From Escherichia coli (lineage in GTDB: Bacteria > Pseudomonadota > Gammaproteobacteria > Enterobacterales > Enterobacteriaceae): 64,000 nt of DNA. A program made the position numbers and the translations under genes. The stretch lies in assembly GCF_030013205.1 (NCBI RefSeq), contig NZ_CP122648.1; one strand, given 5' to 3'. The first letter of the stretch is position 1; each line of letters starts with the position of its first letter. Under the pieces are notes generated by a model that worked only from the letters and a program-made list of their open reading frames with translations, ran no database searches and was not told where the DNA came from. Of the stretch, positions 7,224-35,000 are shown one piece after another.

Positions 7224-7393
7224 AATGGCTCACTCAAGCTTGCTCACGATTGATTCCAGTAACAAACCGTATTGTGTAATTATTTCTATAGCAGGTCGCT
7301 ATATAGGCTTGTATACATCGAATAATTTGAAAATCAAAGAGATAGGTAGATTTTCACTCGAAAGTAGTATTACGTGTAAGTGAGGAGTAATTA

Positions 7394-7407
7394 TTGTTCG
7401 GTATCAA
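7394..7407. promoter_or_regulatory. FNR-like box TTGTT-N4-ATCAA upstream of dmsA
   Basis: Sequence ttgttcggtatcaa, one mismatch to the TTGAT-N4-ATCAA consensus; dmsABC is known to be FNR-activated. Confidence 0.4.
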
Positions 7408-7419
7408 AGGGAGACAAAA

Positions 7420-7439
7420 AAAGCGCCCGCAGGCGCTTT
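7420..7439. repeat. 20-bp direct repeat aaagcgcccgcaggcgcttt, putative attL core of the P2-like prophage
   Basis: Identical 20-mer occurs again at 28470..28489; together they bracket all phage genes. Confidence 0.55.
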
Positions 7440-7522
7440 AACGTTTCTTGCTCCCCCTGATGATTTACTTATTTTTCAACGAATAAGCCAAAACAGGGGG
7501 AACAAATTAACACAAATTATAA

Positions 7523-8515
7523 CTAATCGATGGACAGTTTATGGACACTTTCAGCCAGCGGATTAAAGTTGATCGCGTCCTGTAAGAAGTCCGGCGAAAA
7601 ATGAGCGTACGTCATTGTTTGCTGAATCGTTGCGTGCCCCAGGATTCGTTGCAACGTAACAATATTTCCGCCATTCATCATAAAGTGTGTGGCAAATGTA
7701 TGACGCATGACATGCGTAGCCTGCCCCTTCGGCAAATCCGGTTTCACCTCCTGAAGAATCTCCCGGAACTTCAGATAATCAACCTGATACAATAACCCCG
7801 TTCGACGGGTTTTAATCAGAGGCACGACCGAATCCGCCACAGGAACCGAACGGGATTTTCCGTTTTTGGTGTTAAAGAACGTCACCCGGTTGCCAACGAT
7901 ATGCTCTCCACGTAGTTCCGATGCTTCACTCCATCGGGCACCAGTAGAAAGACACAGAATGGCAACACGACGCGCATCACCCTCCAGTCGCTCAAGAAGC
8001 CGTTCAATCTCATCATCAGAAAGAAAGGCCATCTCTGTGTTCTGAACTTTCAGTTTTCGTATACCGCGTACAGGGTTCGCGTTGTGAAAGACCTCAGCTT
8101 CAATCAGCACCGTGAACATGGTAGACAGTACGCATAAGTCACGATTAATACTGGACGGCATTAATCCGGCCTGTAATTTCTCTGACCGATATTCAAGCAT
8201 AAATTTTCGCGTCATCTGACTGGCGCGAGGATCTCCCATTTCACGAACAACCTTCCCTAGCCTAACCCTGTAGCTATCCCCGTAAGCCTGATTACGCCCA
8301 TCAAGCATCCACCACGCATCAAGCAGCTCTGATAATCGCCGCTGATCAGCTGGCTTAGCCTGCCATGGCTTGTCATGAAAGTTCTGTAACACATACTTCT
8401 CAAACTCCTGAGCCTTTGATTTCAGGGCAAAGATTTTTCGAATCCGCTTTCCTTCCGCCCCCTGCGGTCTGACATCGACCTGATAACGTCCGTCTTTGAG
8501 TTGCTTAATCGACAT
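7523..8515 (-). CDS. int: P2-type tyrosine integrase
   Basis: Strong similarity to P2 Int as I recall it (SIKQLKDGRY..., LCLSTGARW, HxxRHTFATH, YAHF); ATG at 8515 with GGAGG RBS; the track start at 8530 is TTG. Confidence 0.9.
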   Translation of the reverse strand: MSIKQLKDGRYQVDVRPQGAEGKRIRKIFALKSKAQEFEKYVLQNFHDKPWQAKPADQRRLSELLDAWWMLDGRNQAYGDSYRVRLGKVVREMGDPRASQMTRKFMLEYRSEKLQAGLMPSSINRDLCVLSTMFTVLIEAEVFHNANPVRGIRKLKVQNTEMAFLSDDEIERLLERLEGDARRVAILCLSTGARWSEASELRGEHIVGNRVTFFNTKNGKSRSVPVADSVVPLIKTRRTGLLYQVDYLKFREILQEVKPDLPKGQATHVMRHTFATHFMMNGGNIVTLQRILGHATIQQTMTYAHFSPDFLQDAINFNPLAESVHKLSID

Positions 8516-13668: not shown

Positions 13669-14004
13669 AGCAGTATCAGGATTTTTTAGTATGCCGTTCT
13701 CACAAAAAAACCGCTTGCCATGCCGCAATCAGTCAGGTTACATTTCCGCTGCACCTCATAAAACGGGTGCCGGGATTTCCACCCCGCTGACAACCAAAGC
13801 GCACAACCGCGCCAGCGGTTTTTTTGTGCGTACCGTATCGCCACGTCTTTTTCGCACACGAATTATGGTGGGGCGTATGGGGCCGACTTCGGTCGGGCCG
13901 GGTTCTTTGGTTGCCGGTTGTGGAAACCCTGTACGTCTCACCACCCCGAGTTTTCCACCTCTGGATGGTGAGTTTTCAAAACTTACAACCAAAGAGGCCA
14001 CACC

Positions 14005-14235
14005 ATGGCAAACCGCAAACAACAGCGCACATACGCTGCGCGTCGTCACATCCAGACTGAAATCAACCGCAGACTTTTCCGCGCATTCCGCGTCGCGCAA
14101 ATCATGCACATCAATATGCTGCATGAACGCAGTCACGCACTATCGAACAGCTATTCCGCCTCTGTTTTCAGCTATCTGGCGGATGATCTGCGCGAGCTTC
14201 AGCAGCTCATCCAGCAGCAAAACAAACTCCATTAA
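14005..14235 (+). CDS. hypothetical basic protein
   Basis: 76-aa ORF with AGAGG RBS. Confidence 0.4.
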   Translation: MANRKQQRTYAARRHIQTEINRRLFRAFRVAQIMHINMLHERSHALSNSYSASVFSYLADDLRELQQLIQQQNKLH

Positions 14236-14307
14236 TTCCTGTTCCGGGCCTTTCCTGCACCTTGCGGCGGGAGGCCTTCGCACATCTGTAACAAGAGGAG
14301 TGCCGCA

Positions 14308-14673
14308 ATGATTCTCGCCAACGACTTTCTTGAATACCTGCTCAACACAGAGCGTGATCTTGCCGTTCGCGTGCGTGACCGTTATGACATGTACCTGAAA
14401 TCCCTGCCTGTACCGCAGCTCGCTGACGGAAAGATTGTTATTGATGGCCGCTACATGATTGACAGCCACGAGGGAAATTACAGGCTTTACCGCATTGAAG
14501 GCGGCACCCCGTCCGTTATTGGCATTTACCAGCGCCCATCCTCTGCGATCGTCGATGTGATTGCAGACAGCATCCGCATCACACATCACTATGCCGACAC
14601 AGAAGACACCGTGCTGGAAATTCAGCGGCTGGCTACAGTCTGCCGCGACACCCTGAATGGCATGACGAAGTAA
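14308..14673 (+). CDS. hypothetical protein
   Basis: 121-aa ORF with AGAGGA RBS. Confidence 0.45.
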   Translation: MILANDFLEYLLNTERDLAVRVRDRYDMYLKSLPVPQLADGKIVIDGRYMIDSHEGNYRLYRIEGGTPSVIGIYQRPSSAIVDVIADSIRITHHYADTEDTVLEIQRLATVCRDTLNGMTK

Positions 14674-14679
14674 ATCACT

Positions 14680-14967
14680 ATGACAGCAGAGTACATCAGG
14701 GACTGGCAACAACCGCGCCACGCAGTGGGGCGTGAAGGAACGGGGATCCCTGCTCCTGAAGCGGTGGAAGGTGTCGCAACGTCACAGGCCGACATTATCG
14801 ACCGTTTTAATGCGCTGGAAACCCGCCATCAGCAGGACAGCCAGAAAATCACTTTACTGACCACAGAGCTGACAGCACTGAAGGAAAAACTGCGCACGCA
14901 GGACGGCGATCCGCAGAACCGGTTCACCGCAACGGGCGCAGCCTCCGATCAACTGGCTGACTTCTGA
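14680..14967 (+). CDS. hypothetical protein
   Basis: 95-aa ORF. Confidence 0.4.
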   Translation: MTAEYIRDWQQPRHAVGREGTGIPAPEAVEGVATSQADIIDRFNALETRHQQDSQKITLLTTELTALKEKLRTQDGDPQNRFTATGAASDQLADF

Positions 14968-14990
14968 TAAGACAAAGGAGCAAATTTTTT

Positions 14991-15254
14991 ATGAATCTGG
15001 TGATGTCAGATATTACCCGCAACAAGCTGGGTTGCTATATGGCGCAGCAGGCGTCGCTTAACAACATCCCGGTATCTGCACTGGTATCGCGATTTACCGT
15101 GGAACCCTCGGTGTCCGCCATTGCTGCCGCACTGCATGTGCACGGTGTGCAACGCGTGGAAATAATCGAACCCACACAGAATATGGCCATCAGCGACATA
15201 CAGGCGGCGCGCTGTGAGTCATTCACCATCAGCGAAGGTGGACGCAATGAGTAA
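14991..15254 (+). CDS. hypothetical protein
   Basis: 87-aa ORF with AAGGAG RBS; overlaps the gpI start by 8 nt. Confidence 0.45.
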   Translation: MNLVMSDITRNKLGCYMAQQASLNNIPVSALVSRFTVEPSVSAIAAALHVHGVQRVEIIEPTQNMAISDIQAARCESFTISEGGRNE

Positions 15255-15784: not shown

Positions 15785-18442
15785 ATGAGCACGAAATTTA
15801 AAACCGTTATCACTACTGCCGGAGCCGCGAAGCTGGCAGCCGCCACTGTCCCCGGCGGGAAAAAAGTAACTCTGTCTGCAATGGCCGTGGGTGACGGTAA
15901 TGGCAAATTGCCGGTGCCGGATGCCGGTCAGACGAAACTGGTGCATGAGGTCTGGCGTCACGCTCTGAATAAAGTCAGCGTGGATAACAAGAATAAAAAC
16001 TATATCGTGGCTGAACTGGTTGTACCGCCAGAAGTGGGCGGCTTCTGGATGCGTGAGCTGGGTCTGTATGACGATGCCGGAACACTGATTGCGGTCGCTA
16101 ACATGGCGGAAAGCTATAAACCTGAACTCGCTGAAGGCTCCGGGCGCGCGCAGACCTGCCGCATGGTTATTATTGTCAGCAACGTGGCGTCCGTTGAGCT
16201 GAGTATTGATGCCAGCACAGTGATGGCGACGCAGGATTACGTCGATGACAAAATCGCAGAGCATGAGCAGTCCCGCCGCCATCCTGACGCCACGCTGACA
16301 GAAAAAGGTTTTACTCAGTTAAGTAGCGCAACAAACAGCACCAGTGAAGAGCTGGCGGCAACGCCAAAGGCAGTAAAAGCAGCCTATGACAATGCTGAAA
16401 AACGTATGCAGAAAGACCAGAACGGTGACGATATTCCAGATAAGGGCGCTTTTCTGGACAACGTTGGCGTTACCAGCCTGACGTTTATGAAAAACAATGG
16501 CGAAATGCCGCTTGATGCTGACTTGAATACATTTGGTCCCGTTAAGGCTTATCTTGGCATCTGGTCTAAAGCAACATCCACCAACGCAACACTGGAGAAA
16601 AATTTCCCGGAAGATAATGCTGTCGGTGTGCTTGAGGTTTTTGCAGCTGGCAATTTTGCAGGCACGCAACGTTTTATCACGAGAGACGGCAATGTATACA
16701 TGCGTAAACTCGCCAATAAGTGGAATGGCACTGATGGTCCGTGGGGCGTATGGCGTCACACTCAATCAGCTACCCGCCCTTTGAGTACGACTATAGACCT
16801 GAATACGCTTGGAGCCGCTGAGCATCTTGGTTTATGGCGTAACAGTAGCTCGGCTATAGCTTCATATGAACGCAATTATCCAGAGGAAGGCGGCTTTGCT
16901 CAGGGGACGCTTGAGATCCTCGAAGGCGGGAATTATGGAAGAACGCAACGTTATACCACTCGTCGTGGGAATATGTACGTTCGCTGCCTTGCGGCAAGCT
17001 GGGATGCATCAAATCCGCAGTGGGAACCGTGGTTAAGAGTCGGTCATCAGTCAGAGAGCCGTTATTACGAAGGTGATTTGAATGTTCTAACCGACCCCGG
17101 TATTTACAGTGTTACAGGAAAGGCGACAAACGGTCCGATGCTGGACGCTGCTGGGGCGACATTGCTTGGGATACTGGAAGTAATCAGGCGTTTTGATGGT
17201 GTATCTGTCTGGCAGCGTTACACAACCACAGGGAAATCAGAAACCACACAGGGGCGCACTTTTGAGCGCGTCTACGCCGGGAGCACATGGACCGAATGGC
17301 GAGAAGTGTATAACTCCTTTTCGTTGCCCCTGAATATGGGGATCGGTGGCGCAGTGGCAAAACTCACCAGCCTGGACTGGCAGACCTACGATTTTGTGCC
17401 GGGCAGTCTGATAACCGTTCGGCTTGATAACATGACCAATATTCCCGACGGTATGGACTGGGGCGTCATTGATGGCAACCTGATAAACATCGCTGTTGGT
17501 CCGAGTGATGATTCCGGTACGGGGCGCTCAATGCATGTATGGCGCAGCACTGTAAGTAAAGCGAATTACCGCTTTTTTATGGTTCGCATTTCAGGAAATC
17601 CGGGAAGCCGCACGATTACGACAAGACGTGTGCCAATTATCGACGAAGCTCAGACATGGGCGGCGAAACAGACATTCAGCGGTGGTCTTTCTGGCGAACT
17701 ATCCGGCAATGCTGCTACAGCAACAAAGCTGAAAACGGCAAGGACAATTAACGGCGTAAAATTTGACGGCTCGGCAAATATTGAAGCGTTTCCGCCAGGT
17801 GTTCCGCTGCCGTGGCCATCAGATACTGTGCCGTCTGGTTACGCCCTGATGCAGGGACAGACTTTTGATAAATCTGCATACCCGAAACTTGCAGTCGCTT
17901 ATCCGTCAGGCGTGATCCCGGATATGCGTGGCTGGACAATCAAGGGCAAACCCGCCAGTGGTCGGGCCGTATTGTCTCTGGAACAGGACGGCATTAAATC
18001 GCACACCCACAGTGCCAGCGCATCCAGTACGGATTTGGGTACGAAAACCACATCGTCGTTTGATTACGGTACTAAATCAACGAATAACACAGGTGCACAT
18101 ACCCACAATGTATCTGGTACTGCAAATAGTGCTGGCGCACATACTCATACCGTTCCATTAAGGAGACCAAACAGTGGCGGTATGAATTTCGACTGGCTGG
18201 ATGGTGCATCAAGTGGCACGGTGGTGGGGAATGGAACTGTGCCTTCTTCTGGCGCACATACCCACTCAGTATCAGGTACCGCTACAAGTGCTGGGGCACA
18301 TGCACACACTGTTGGTATTGGCGCTCATACGCACTCTGTTGCGATTGGTTCACATGGACACACCATCACCGTTAACGCTGCTGGTAACGCGGAAAACACC
18401 GTTAAAAACATCGCATTTAATTATATTGTGAGGCTTGCATAA
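15785..18442 (+). CDS. P2-like tail fiber protein H
   Basis: 885-aa ORF; conserved N-terminus [21 protein letters not shown]...; C-terminal His-rich repeats (GAHTHxV). Confidence 0.85.
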
Positions 18443-19059
18443 TGGCATTCAGAATGAGTGAACAATCACGTACTGTAAAAATTTATAACCTGCTGGCCGG
18501 AACTAATGAGTTTATTGGTGAAGGTGACGCATATATTCCACCTCATACAGGGCTGCCAGCCAATTCTACAGATATCGCCCCACCGGAAATTCCTGCTGGC
18601 TTTGTGGCAGTTTTTAACAGTGAAAATGAATCGTGGAATATTGTTGAAGACCATCGTGGTAAAACGGTCTATGACGTGGCATCGGGGGACGCGTTGTTTA
18701 TTTCTGAACCCGGACCGCTACCAGAGAATGTCACCTGGTTGTCGCCAGCAGGGGAGTATCAGAAGTGGGACGGCGTATCCTGGGTGAAGGATGAGGAAGC
18801 AGAAAAACTGTTTCGGATACGGGAAGCGGAAGAGAAAAAGGCAAGGTTGATCCAGGAAGCAACAGATAACATCGCAATTCTGCAGGATGCAGTTAATCTT
18901 GAAATAGCAACAAACGAGGAAAATTCACAACTGGATTCCTGGAGAAAATACAGAGTATTAGTGAGTAGAATTGACACCAGTACAGCTCCGGATATCGTAT
19001 GGCCAGAGCTGATGAATCAGGGTTATGTGCGGGAGGACGAGCAGATAACTTCAGACTGA
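18442..19059 (+). CDS. tail fiber assembly protein (gpG-like)
   Basis: 205-aa ORF immediately after H with overlapping stop/start. Confidence 0.7.
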
Positions 19060-19586
19060 AATTTAGTGATGAATGTTGAATCATCTGGAATATCATGCAA
19101 TACCAATGCATGAGCACCTATTGTGACATTGTTTCCTATACGCACTTTGCCACCAAGAATGGTGGCATTACAACCAATGGTCACATTATGTCCTATAACA
19201 ATATCCATATCATTAAAATCACCACGCAGCCCAATAGTTACCCCTGGTTTTATTGAACAATTTTCACCGATTGTTACTTTGTGACCGATAACAACACTGT
19301 TGAGATAAGAAATATCAAAGCCTTTCCCTATATTTACAGTTAAAGGGACTGTTACATTATATTTATCAAGAATGAAACGTTCTATTTTCCCCGCAATCTT
19401 CCGACAGCATCCGCCTTTATCAAAAAGGTATTTGGCTATGCGCCACCAAAATAAATAACGAACTCTTCTATGTTTTATTGCGCGAACAATTGCCTTTCGC
19501 CAGGAGAAAGGACGCTCGCTACCGATTACTTCATAGTGAATACAATCTTTAAGTTCATTAATATTCATATCTCTATTATTCAGCAT
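19023..19586 (-). CDS. hexapeptide-repeat (LbH) acetyltransferase, AT-rich cargo gene
   Basis: Repeated [LIV]-G-x-x-x-x motifs ([22 protein letters not shown]...); AT-rich; sits at the P2 Z/fun position. Confidence 0.75.
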
Positions 19587-19756
19587 AAGATAATCATGTG
19601 ACCAATTATTGTAATAATTTTAATGGTATGTTTCTACTGGCTATCCAGCGTGTCTGATGTCCAGTAACAAATCGTTAACACTGGTGCAATCAAATGGTGA
19701 GTGTTAAGACTGGCCACTTATTACCAGGTATGAGGGTATGAGTGGCCAGCATTAAA

Positions 19757-20251
19757 TCAGAACAGCCCTTTAACTGAACTGGCCGCGCTGTTAAGGGATG
19801 ATGTCACTTTATCTTTGAAGCCGGACAGCATATCGCTGAACGATGAGGATTGCAGGCGCTCCCGCAAATCCTCATCACAGCGTTCAAGGGTCAGTGAAAA
19901 TTCTATCTTTTTCGCCTTACCGTAGCGATCAAACTCGGAACGGGTCGTATTCGTTTCGGTCAGGACATACATGCCGTAAATCTGCCCGACGCCATCAATA
20001 AGAGGCCAGGGGCGTCCTGTATACGCCTGCGTGGTCAGCAGCGACAGCGACACTTCGCCACCTGTAATTTCAGGATAAAGCACACCAGAAAGAACGATGC
20101 GATCATCACCTGCACCGATATACTGCCAGCTTGCTGAACGGTTAACGCGTTCATTTTTCACATGCCGCCAGCTTTTGTTTTGCTGTAACTGCTGATGCGG
20201 CAGCGTGCGCAGCTCAAAAACAAACATGCCGTAGATCATCATCATGGCCAT
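19757..20251 (-). CDS. P2-like tail protein U
   Basis: 164-aa ORF following T on the minus strand. Confidence 0.7.
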   Translation of the reverse strand: MAMMMIYGMFVFELRTLPHQQLQQNKSWRHVKNERVNRSASWQYIGAGDDRIVLSGVLYPEITGGEVSLSLLTTQAYTGRPWPLIDGVGQIYGMYVLTETNTTRSEFDRYGKAKKIEFSLTLERCDEDLRERLQSSSFSDMLSGFKDKVTSSLNSAASSVKGLF

Positions 20252-32019: not shown

Positions 32020-35000
32020 TTAGTCAAACGGCGGTGGGGCCAGCACTTCACGATTACCGTTGTGCCCCTGTTCGCTGACAATCCCCTGCGCTTCCATCTG
32101 TTCGATAATACGCGCTGCACGGTTATAACCAATGCGGAACTGACGCTGTACGCCAGAAATTGATGCTTTGCGTTTTTCAGTGACAAACTGCACCGCCTGA
32201 TCGAACAACGGATCCAGCTCTTCAGCGCCATCGAAACCGCCCGCGCCACCTTCGCTTTCGCTGTCGGAGGTGATGCCATCAACATACTGTGGGCGACCAC
32301 GCGCTTTCCAGTCCTGCACCACGGCATGAACTTCCTGATCGCGAACAAAAGCACCATGGACACGTACCGGCAACGTGGAGTTCGGCCCAGAGTAGAGCAT
32401 ATCCCCCATACCCAGCAGTGATTCCGCACCAGCCTGATCAAGAATGGTACGTGAGTCAATCTTACTGGATACGGTAAAGGCGATACGGGTCGGAATATTC
32501 GCTTTAATCAGACCAGTAATAACATCAACCGATGGACGCTGAGTTGCCAGTACGAGGTGGATACCCGCGGCACGGGCTTTTTGCGCCAGACGTGCTATCA
32601 GCTCTTCCACTTTTTTACCTACGGTCATCATCAGGTCGGCAAATTCGTCCACCAAAACCACAATGTATGGTTCTTTTTTCAGCACCGGATGCTGGACGTC
32701 CATACTGTCACCCGGCTTCCAGTACGGGTCTGGAATCGGACGCATCATGCGATCGGCTTCAGCAATTTTTTCGTTATAACCCGCCAGATTACGCACACCT
32801 AGGGCGGACATCAGCTTATAACGACGTTCCATTTCATTTACGCACCAGCGCAAAGCGTTGGCAGCATCTTTCATGTCGGTAACGACTTCCGTTAACAGAT
32901 GCGGAATGCCTTCATAAACCGAAAGCTCCAGCATTTTCGGGTCGATCATGATGAAACGCACATCTTCTGGCTGTGCTTTATAAAGCATGCTCAGGATCAT
33001 CGCGTTCACACCGACAGACTTACCGGAACCGGTAGTCCCCGCAACCAACAAGTGCGGCATTTTCGCCAGATCGGCAACCACCGGCTCACCGGCGATATCT
33101 TTACCCAGTACCACGGTTAATGGCGACGGATTATCGCGGAATTTGGCGTTATCCAAAACTTCGCGCAGATATACGGTTTGTCGTTTTTTATTCGGTAACT
33201 CCAGACCTACATAGGGTTTGCCAGGAATAACTTCAACGACACGCACCGCCACCGTCGAAAGTGAACGGGCAAGGTCACGTGACAAGTTAGAAATACGCGC
33301 CGCTTTTACGCCCGGTGCCAGGTTCAATTCAAAGCGAGTGATAACCGGCCCCGGAGAATAATTGACGACATCGGCTTTAATACGGAAATCAGCCAGACGC
33401 GCTTCCACCAGACGCGCCATTTGTTCAAGCGCAAAGGTATCTACCGGCTCCACTTCGCTCGGCGGAGGTGTCAACAAATCCAAAGAAGGCAGCGGCGTCG
33501 TCGGTTTATGCAACGGACGGCTGTCGCCATTACGCATCAACAGCGGATGAAGCAGGGTATCCTGCGGCTGTGGCGCAACTGGCTGTTGTGGCTGCTGATA
33601 CTGCGGCTGCGGTGCAACCGGTTGTTGTGGCTGCTGATACTGCTGCTGCGGCGCAACCGGTTGTTGTGGCTGCTGATACTGCGGCTGCGGTGCAACCGGT
33701 TGTTGCGGCTGCTGATATTGTGGCTGCGGCGCAACCTGCTGTTGTGGCTGCTGATACTGCTGCTGCGGTGCAACCGGTTGTTGCGGCTGCTGTACAGGTT
33801 CAACAATTGGCGTAAACAACGGTTCGTGTGGACCATCATCCAGCAACGCTTTCATTGGCGAAAATTCAAAATCATCCAGCGAGAACGGATTCGCCCCAGC
33901 CGGTTGTTCGCCGGAATAACGTTGTTGTTGAGTTTGCGCAAACTGACGAGCCAGTTCAGCCTCTGCCGCAGCATCTGCATCTTCTGCGTTTACGGGCACA
34001 TCATGTTGATACTGTTCGCCATAGCGTTGCTGCTGTGTCTGGGCGAACTGACGTGCCAGTTCATCCTGCTGCATCGCATCGATTTCATCATCGTTGTACT
34101 GATCGCCAGAATCGTACTGATTGCGCTGGGCTTCACGGGCTTTTTCTTCTGCCGCACGCTGTGAGGGCAGCTTAATACCGTAAGACGCCAATTCACGACG
34201 AGTTGGCACGCGGATACGTTTCGGTCGTGGCAACTGCGGGCCAATCCCCTCTTTGACCTGCGGACGCGGTCCACCGCTATTTGCCAGACTGAAGACTGGC
34301 GCGGCAACGGTTGCGGCAGCCCCCGTCGCCAGTGTCGCTTTTTTCACGCCAGATGCCAGCGGAGAAACAGCGGCAGCGGCTTCTACTGGAGGTACTGCTG
34401 CAACAGAAGGTGCTTTCAGCGAAGATTTGATCGGTTCTGGTTCTTTAACCGGTTCAGGAATCGGTTGATACCAGGCCGCAAGTTGTTCACGTTCACGGGC
34501 ACGCTTCTCTTCCACTTCTTCAAAATAGTAAAGCGGCGGACGCGCGGGTTTTGTCTCTTCTACAACGGGCTCAGGCTCCACAACAGGGTGCTGTTCAACG
34601 GGTTGCGGCTGTTGGTACAACGGCTCCTGAGCGGCTGGCTGCTGATAAGTTTGCTCAGTCTGGTATGTAGACTGTGGAGCAAAAGTGGATTGCTGCTCTT
34701 CGGCTTGCCAGGCGTTACCTGCCGCCGTTTGTTCTGGCGCAGGGGCGTAATACGGCTGTTGCGCAGACTGTTCCGCCGCAGTTGCATAATACGGCTGCTG
34801 AACAGGTTGTTCCGCCGCAGGAGCGTAGTGAGGTTGTTGCACAGGTTGTTCCGCTGCTGGCGCATAATACGGCGGCTGTGGCTGTACAGGTTGTTGCAGC
34901 GGCTCATTATATTGCACTGCAGGCTGCGCATATTGTGGCTGCTGTGGGTAACCTTCCGGTGCCGGAGCAATCACCGGCTCTCCCGTTTGTGGACCCGGTA

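Follow-up and report, generated by a model that had tools for sequence, protein, structure and literature searches.

A conserved left-handed beta-helix gene lacking the catalytic histidine is carried by a mobile tail-fibre and chaperone cassette in Escherichia coli

What is an AT-rich gene for an acyltransferase-like protein doing at the end of a prophage tail-fibre operon, facing the other way? The question is raised by a 64,000-nucleotide stretch of Escherichia coli DNA (contig NZ_CP122648.1 of assembly GCF_030013205.1; hereafter the window), in which a gene for a left-handed beta-helix (LbH, hexapeptide-repeat) protein meets the tail-fibre assembly chaperone gene of a prophage head-on. A first-pass annotation had described a minus-strand LbH gene after gene G with a convergent overlap of about 37 bp, and the open reading frame (ORF) coordinates and Pfam bear this out. 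That acyltransferase genes occur as morons at this site is already known, and the gene itself has been annotated publicly and noticed in passing. Our analyses add three observations, each new as far as we have searched: the gene is inherited as part of a mobile cassette common to several phage backbones; it is usually paired convergently with a chaperone gene, a family-wide habit that extends to relatives of 35% identity; and the clade to which the window protein belongs has replaced the catalytic dyad of the fold while remaining under selection.

The reading frame occupies 19023-19586 on the minus strand (187 amino acids) and is intact in the window, free of the disabling mutations that would have spoken against a functional gene. 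Its ATG at 19586, which would add six codons, is absent from two diverged alleles, while the ATG at 19568 and the N-terminus MNINELK that follows are conserved and the same start was chosen by PGAP; the gene therefore most likely comprises 19023-19568 (181 amino acids). At 0.375 (0.29 at third codon positions), the GC content of the ORF is lower than that of the tail fibre gene (0.51), of U-T (0.55) and of the window as a whole (0.50). The earlier description of AT-rich cargo thus holds, with flanks of ~0.51-0.55 and no counterpart of the gene in P88 or lambda. The 37-bp overlap is also annotated in a 50-kb and a 94-kb phage-plasmid, and is missing from an allele of 87% nucleotide identity whose chaperone is shorter.

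A predicted sigma-70-type promoter lies upstream, inside the segment shared with other backbones, and its hexamers are kept, or improved to TATAAT, in three of these; from its sequence, this site would drive the LbH gene. The same-strand upstream neighbour is gpU, the last gene of an inverted FI-FII-E-T-U tail operon, and a hairpin after gpU may be an operon-end structure. Our search for a terminator between gpU and the LbH gene found only this hairpin, without a U-tract, so read-through from the tail operon into the LbH gene is possible. An Rfam scan gave no match within or adjoining the gene. Two inverted matches link the coding interior (19167-19219) with the promoter and 5’ region (19593-19630), over 23 nt at 83% and 14 nt at 93%; they are un-nested and may reflect chance in AT-rich DNA.

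Comparison of carriers by blastn revealed the unit in which the gene moves. Four phage or phage-plasmid backbones carry it: the P88-like prophage of the window, the 50-kb phage-plasmid, the 94-kb phage-plasmid, which is P1-like, and another prophage of myovirus type. Each of the last three is joined to the window by a single match, covering 16303-19847 at 93.7%, 17810-19656 at 94.8% and 17789-19637 at 82.7%, respectively. Common to all is a segment that begins in the C-terminal third of the fibre gene (at 17789-17810), continues through the chaperone and LbH genes and ends at least 50-70 bp upstream of the LbH start. Its fibre and chaperone portions are lambda-like: fibre residues 658-885 share 66% identity with lambda Stf orf-314, and chaperone residues 1-188 share 81% with lambda Tfa. 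Lambda itself has ea47 after tfa and no LbH gene at that junction.

Among 5,426 complete E. coli genomes, 315 carry the family; of the 353 matching places, 59 are plasmid-borne. At least 80% of the gene length is held by 302 of the 315 matching genomes; copies in some others are truncated. Carrier serotypes include O6:H16, O139:H1 and O145:H28, the last with an allele of 73% nucleotide identity that stands alone between rcdA and ybjL. Judged from sampled rows, this allele probably accounts for the 72 records with 60-80% identity. It carries tyrosine at the catalytic column (Tyr-type; L013 4956-5507 in E. coli Combat11I9, and also in O145:H28 strains) and looks domesticated or stranded. Separately, the ETEC4079 chromosome (NZ_CP122643.1) has three places matching the LbH region, and the related strain ETEC1701 has, in addition, a plasmid of 96.6 kb (NZ_CP122941.1) with a 92% copy; a single strain can carry several such cassettes.

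We then asked how far the arrangement extends among relatives. Convergent pairing of the LbH gene with a chaperone gene recurs in Hafnia phage yong2 (53% identity), in Citrobacter phage phiNP (39%) and in the P1-like phages JL22 and Ro157c2YLVW (37%). A locus search of IMG/VR used a pattern from a 16-sequence alignment, a 106-sequence alignment being too diverse for pattern design. A convergent chaperone gene lay within 400 bp in 57 of the 76 loci with enough downstream sequence, comprising 35 of 36 Tyr-type loci and 21 of 38 with histidine at the catalytic column (His-type). After dereplication at 95%, it was present in 13 of 28 clusters, and Pfam added two more within ~1 kb. Other surroundings occur: the homologue of ESSI2_ev015 adjoins an integrase at a prophage end, another ends an HP1-like tail module, and that of a Salmonella remnant directly follows fibre or receptor-binding genes. 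The closest homologues are phage- or prophage-borne, not housekeeping enzymes.

Four settings of relatives deserve separate mention. The His-type homologue of JL22 (L017 773-8140) and Ro157c2YLVW (L024) is flanked by the two chaperone genes, themselves convergent, of the fibre region that cin inverts, and so may travel inside the invertible segment or next to it. A homologue of ~31% identity (L025 4010-4489) in Streptococcus phage 9874 and other 987-group dairy S. thermophilus phages comes directly behind the final tail or receptor-binding gene and ahead of the holin, which again puts it at the close of the host-recognition module, here in a Gram-positive system. Enterobacteriaceae bacterium BIT-l23 (L007 8001-9697) carries three tandem LbH genes (181, 193 and 195 amino acids) in a non-phage chromosomal context; the product of the first shares 52% identity with the window protein and possesses the His/Asp dyad. 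On IMG/VR contig L076 (3021-4124), the ORF next after a His-type homologue is convergent to it and gives a weak match, below threshold, to glycosyltransferase family 9 (heptosyltransferase), a neighbour that hints at lipopolysaccharide (LPS)-core chemistry.

Positions 1-39800 of the window are 100% identical to the ETEC4079 chromosome, and the prophage is inserted between dmsA and serS. The annotated order begins with integrase, a repressor-like helix-turn-helix gene, a cox-like gene and some early genes, then passes through fragments of ash, replication, scaffold and capsid genes. It continues with I, H and G on the plus strand, the LbH gene on the minus strand, U, T, E’, E, FII and FI, also on the minus strand, and then a shortened D, ogr and hok. 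The fragments at 13691-15113 (ash, replication, GPO scaffold and capsid) are PGAP pseudogenes; the gpD-like gene (25809-26609) is annotated at only 266 amino acids, against 1164 bp, or ~387 amino acids, for D in the P2 record; and portal, terminase and V/W/J baseplate genes are absent from the prophage annotation. The element is a defective, decayed P88-like remnant (Xuanwuvirus, Peduoviridae), not P2. Homology to P88 stops at 16389 and resumes at 19752 with 98.9% identity; the corresponding slot of P88 holds an invertible fibre segment with its invertase and no LbH gene. We looked for gix/cix-like invertase crossover sites at the cassette boundary and found no AAACCNNGGTTT-like site near 16-20 kb.

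The site nevertheless corresponds to ‘moron position 2’ as defined by Wiles et al. (PMC3573123), in that an atypical gene directly follows G on the opposite strand and precedes the tail operon, though its far neighbour is U and not FI. Assignment to the P2 Z/fun locus is therefore right as to position and as to convergent orientation, which is that of fun(Z) and neaT; it does not extend to the backbone, which is P88-like with an inverted operon and U as right neighbour. Likewise the gene is cargo, but cargo of a mobile unit of fibre tip, chaperone and LbH gene that occurs in several backbones.

What kind of protein does this gene encode? The window protein matches Pfam Hexapep PF00132 (E=1.1e-12; 47.5 bits, the cutoff being 27), which places it in the superfamily, and matches phrog_2154, a family without assigned function, over its full length (E=1.3e-78; residues 5-186 on profile positions 2-184 of 185). 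An AlphaFold2 monomer model (predicted local distance difference test, pLDDT, 94.5; predicted template modelling score, pTM, 0.87) consists of four N-terminal helices and then a left-handed beta-helix; its top Foldseek matches are all LbH serine acetyltransferases (template modelling score ~0.7), which are the closest solved relatives in sequence and in structure. The best NCBIfam models are of EpsC, CysE and WcaB type, every score falling far under its cutoff (TIGR01172, 70.1 bits versus 210.65; PRK11132/NF008349, 44.1 versus 397). Pfam gave no match to the N-terminal SATase domain (SATase_N), and the window protein has 181-187 amino acids versus ~273 for CysE. The C-terminal tail of CysE, which binds CysK, ends in isoleucine; that of the window protein reads ...SSRT. 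On sequence grounds, the RefSeq and GenBank name ‘serine acetyltransferase’ is unsupported.

Gene clusters for polysaccharide or nonulosonic-acid biosynthesis, with NeuB, a NeuC-like epimerase, a CMP-transferase and glycosyltransferases, contain the non-phage relatives of 41-43% identity; an ancestral role as a glycan O-acetyltransferase therefore fits. The window protein sequence has no N-terminal hydrophobic segment, so the protein is probably soluble and cytoplasmic. Of the acetyltransferase called by the first-pass annotation, the LbH acyltransferase fold stands, but activity should not be assumed for a clade without the catalytic histidine and its acidic partner; the proposed comparison with maltose and galactoside enzymes likewise gave way to serine acetyltransferases as nearest relatives, albeit with a protein that falls short on every count that marks a CysE.

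Known systems offer partial parallels, and our literature search found no characterised function for this LbH family. NeuO of prophage CUS-3 is an LbH enzyme that O-acetylates the E. coli K1 capsule and raises phage resistance (PMC3046976, PMC13001214). Like the window protein, it is a soluble LbH protein encoded by prophage cargo; it is trimeric and brings about lysogenic conversion (PMC3046976, PMC13001214). NeuO belongs, however, to the NodL/LacA-like branch and has a catalytic histidine and a tryptophan, whereas the window protein is serine-acetyltransferase-like with tyrosine at the histidine position. NeuO is also phase-variable through heptanucleotide repeats; a search for 5’ tandem repeats in and near the LbH gene found none, the sole array being 2 x 8 bp at 19727-19742. 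The neuO gene, too, adjoins a host-recognition (tailspike) gene. A closer positional parallel is neaT of the E. coli CFT073 prophage phi-b0847, an AT-rich acyltransferase gene with its native promoter at moron position 2 that alters surface behaviour and occurs in unrelated phages (PMC3573123). Both neaT and the window gene directly follow a G-type assembly gene in opposite orientation, are AT-rich and encode a predicted acyltransferase, but NeaT is an integral-membrane Acyl_transf_3 protein (PF01757), a fold unrelated to the soluble LbH.

P2 fun(Z), a nonessential gene of lysogenic conversion or exclusion, also lies on the minus strand immediately after G. Fun(Z) has 528 amino acids, and the next genes of P2, FI to D, are on the plus strand, whereas here FI-U are inverted, as in P88; homology to Fun(Z) was not found (best BLASTP E-value 4.3). 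CysE, WcaB and EpsC share with the window protein the N-terminal helices, the LbH and the position of the active-site loop, but CysE has a His-Asp dyad and serine-binding residues that are replaced in the much shorter window protein. Finally, a ‘serine acetyltransferase’ beside tail-fibre or receptor-binding genes has been reported in JL22 and in S. thermophilus 987-group phages, its role being called unknown (PMC9603915, PMC6213268); in the JL22 description, the reason for the gene’s presence “is still unknown” (PMC9603915). The JL22, phiNP and ev015 proteins are 37-50% identical to the window protein and retain the catalytic histidine with aspartate or glutamate, whereas the window protein belongs to the Tyr clade.

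The reading that we favour, with confidence somewhat short of even, is that this moron is expressed in the lysogen, that its product modifies an envelope glycan, or a precursor of one, by non-canonical catalysis, and that the gene spreads within a host-range cassette of lambda-Stf/Tfa type. As a moron with its own promoter, it would be dispensable for virion building and would be transcribed in the lysogen from the sigma-70-type site, convergently to the late tail-fibre operon. The product would assemble into a homotrimer that binds acetyl-CoA between its subunits, and would acetylate a sugar of an envelope glycan before this leaves the cytoplasmic side of the inner membrane; the acceptor might belong to the LPS core or O-unit or to a different surface polysaccharide, or it might be an activated sugar. 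The altered surface might reduce adsorption of phages with the same kind of fibre, or change some other surface-dependent host trait. Because the gene is inherited with the fibre tip and chaperone, the host-range module would bring its own surface-modifying gene. A bolder version, which we consider improbable, has the LbH protein matched to the receptor of the linked fibre, so that each fibre specificity spreads with its own receptor-masking factor for superinfection exclusion; the Tyr clade, its active site rebuilt (His to Tyr, the dyad Asp/Glu to Thr or Lys, perhaps with a new His102/Asp128 pair), would then comprise either LbH acetyltransferases whose catalytic arrangement has not been described before or dominant-negative pseudoenzymes, through which a host acetyltransferase is blocked.

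Selection on the gene is clear. The ratio of nonsynonymous to synonymous substitution rates (dN/dS) among alleles is 0.04-0.12, with dS from 0.12 to saturation and the tyrosine encoded by both TAT and TAC. The LbH gene is under strong purifying selection, and the protein is therefore functional. Persistence of the lone copy between rcdA and ybjL likewise speaks for a retained function.

Several observations weigh against envelope modification by this protein, beginning with the active site. Residues are numbered for the 187-amino-acid form and were placed by HMMER alignments to three serine acetyltransferases. Tyr94 falls opposite the catalytic histidine (His158 of E. coli CysE, His162 of NgSAT), and Thr79, Ser93, His102, Met127 and Asp128 fall opposite NgSAT Asp147, Asp161, Glu170, Arg196 and His197, whose active-site roles are described elsewhere (PMC8786284). 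None of these six aligned residues, of seven (Asp96 was unmapped), is conserved. Histidine occupies the catalytic column in 96 of 106 and ~200 of 220 family sequences, with tyrosine in the window protein’s clade: all 12 clade members within the 220-sequence set have it, and the clade, which takes in Hafnia phage yong2, extends to members of 53% identity. The acidic dyad partner, which is less strictly kept than the histidine among relatives, is Thr, Lys or Val in the Tyr clade, and sister clades (ev015, phiNP, JL22) keep His with Asp or Glu. With histidine and acidic partner both replaced, the textbook His-Asp mechanism is not usable; in addition, every LbH member crystallised by the time of the NeuO structure paper shares the catalytic histidine (PMC3046976). 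The Tyr clade has also changed nearby, with proline replacing glutamine in the KPG motif and aspartate standing at position 128. If the protein is catalytic, it would have to use a non-canonical base (Tyr94, or a relocated His102/Asp128) or act on a more nucleophilic acceptor such as an amine. His102 with Asp128 might be the relocated base in the E. coli subclade, judging by the alignment to NgSAT, but position 102 is Leu or Arg in the distant Tyr-clade members yong2, P0014 and P0013.

The remaining contrary points concern the cassette and its carriers. Identity between LbH proteins correlates weakly with identity between the neighbouring chaperones (Spearman 0.30), which is no proof of functional matching, and insertions are generally tolerated at the end of a late operon. 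The several carrier serotypes disfavour a single specific O-antigen as target, and since the prophage of the window is defective, a benefit to the phage is moot here. The receptor of the lambda side tail fibre is a protein, OmpC, and not a glycan.

The main rival, itself unlikely, is that the Tyr-clade protein is a pseudoenzyme that keeps the LbH trimer scaffold and its ligand surfaces without transferring acetyl groups. It could sequester a sugar nucleotide or lipid-linked intermediate, or poison a host LbH acetyltransferase through mixed trimers, in either case removing a surface modification and not adding one. Joint loss of the histidine and acidic partner throughout the clade argues for it, as sister clades in the same genomic context keep both; so do the remodelled neighbouring positions (the KPG motif and Asp128) and the strong purifying selection, by which the altered protein is still useful. 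The other near-invariant family residues are all retained (R49, I86, G89, G107, G119, G132, V135, G145, G151, G157 and A158), which goes against a pseudoenzyme, although these are mostly structural and uninformative; moreover, no partner gene or host target has been identified, and some LbH N-acyltransferases work without a catalytic histidine, so that its loss is no proof of inactivity. Rather less probable is an intracellular anti-phage exclusion in which, as with P2 Fun(Z), Old and Tin, another phage is blocked after its DNA has entered; the product might, for instance, acetylate some factor of the host or of the phage. The gene has the slot and orientation of P2 fun(Z), which by annotation blocks T5; it forms a cassette by itself, with a promoter of its own and without a recurring partner gene; and variable loci of P2-like phages are rich in defence genes (PMC9122126). 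That paper, which is confined to the old/tin hotspot, makes no mention of this gene (PMC9122126), however, and in PADLOC-DB 2.0 no family (0) matched the window protein at E<=1, so that the suggested exclusion role finds no support in a known exclusion system. Lack of homology to Fun(Z), non-phage relatives that are polysaccharide-cluster enzymes, and linkage to fibre and chaperone genes all point to the cell surface and away from intracellular immunity.

Three further explanations fare worse. Tight linkage to the chaperone gene across many backbones could mean that the protein helps virion assembly by maturing or modifying the linked tail fibre, but this is highly unlikely, as the gene is transcribed against the late operon and is absent from lambda and from most of the 420 phage records with the chaperone family, only 51 records have any LbH homologue, a lone chromosomal copy persists and other copies sit beside integrases at prophage ends. 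We are just as sceptical of a functionless passenger decaying in a dead prophage: the prophage does lack replication, head and most baseplate genes, and some genomes have truncated copies of the gene, yet the frame is intact, dN/dS is low, the promoter is conserved and nearly all matching genomes hold most of the gene. Least credible of all is a true serine O-acetyltransferase serving as an auxiliary metabolic gene that boosts cysteine synthesis. Database product names and the closest solved structures and sequences favour it, but the TIGR01172 and PRK11132 scores are under cutoff, SATase_N and the CysK-binding tail are missing, and Thr79, Ser93, Tyr94, Met127 and Asp128 replace Asp, Asp, His, Arg and His (PMC8786284); by these scores and residues, it is effectively refuted. 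Coordinates of the features are collected in Table 1.

Table 1. Features of the window around the LbH gene, and alleles of the gene in other contexts
Feature	Location	Strand	Details
Tail fibre gene (P2 H type)	15785..18442	+	885 amino acids; Pfam Phage_tail_fib, Phage_fiber_2, Collar
Region differing from P88	16390..19751		P88 there has an alternative fibre tip, two chaperone genes and a DNA invertase
Mobile cassette: lambda-Stf-like tip, Tfa-like chaperone, LbH gene and promoter region	17800..19656		Uninterrupted blastn matches
Tail-fibre assembly chaperone (P2 G / lambda Tfa type)	18442..19059	+	205 amino acids; Pfam Caudo_TAP E=1.6e-39
Convergent 3’-end overlap, tail-fibre assembly gene/LbH gene	19023..19059		37 bp, from ORF coordinates
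LbH (hexapeptide-repeat) acyltransferase-like gene	19023..19568	-	181 amino acids from the conserved, most likely start; Pfam, phrog, AlphaFold2, dN/dS
Predicted sigma-70-type promoter of LbH gene	19608..19636	-	TAGAAA, 17 nt spacer, TACAAT; consensus scan
Imperfect 18-nt inverted repeat (hairpin)	19704..19755	-	Just past gpU stop, at P88-homology boundary
Tail protein gpU	19757..20251	-	Pfam Phage_P2_GpU E=5.5e-39; annotation; 98.9% identical to P88 from 19752
97% nucleotide-identity allele	50-kb phage-plasmid		I, H, G, LbH convergent with 37-bp overlap, then repA
92% nucleotide-identity allele	94-kb P1-like phage-plasmid		Tail fibre, chaperone, LbH convergent, then holin
87% nucleotide-identity allele	Different myovirus-type prophage, its end next to pphA		Convergent after chaperone, no overlap
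73% nucleotide-identity allele	Lone gene between rcdA and ybjL		Surroundings without phage genes

Several features lie apart from the cassette. Rfam matches above gathering score inside the remnant comprise isrK (13751-13825) and the C4 antisense RNA (13861-13948); together they span 13751-13948 and overlap an ‘ash family’ pseudogene. We take this region to resemble the antisense immunity element of P1/P7 type, here within a P2-family remnant. At the left prophage junction, an STnc130 small RNA match (136 bits) occupies 7314-7448, between dmsA and the integrase gene (7523-8515), and at the right end a hok/gef family toxin gene (28070-28210) lies just before serS. The ftsK gene contains internal tandem repeats at 33559-33795, with a 39-bp offset and 88-92% identity between copies.

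The family labelled “serine acetyltransferase” is carried by ~6% of complete E. coli genomes and by several P1-like and other phage-plasmids. If the protein modifies a structure on which the linked fibre depends, then tail-fibre swapping would also move a surface-modifying or exclusion function, with a bearing on host-range prediction, on the design of phage-therapy cocktails and on the serology of enterotoxigenic (ETEC) and extraintestinal pathogenic (ExPEC) E. coli strains. For the LbH superfamily, a selected clade without the catalytic histidine offers a clean test between another catalytic solution in this fold and a non-enzymatic role.

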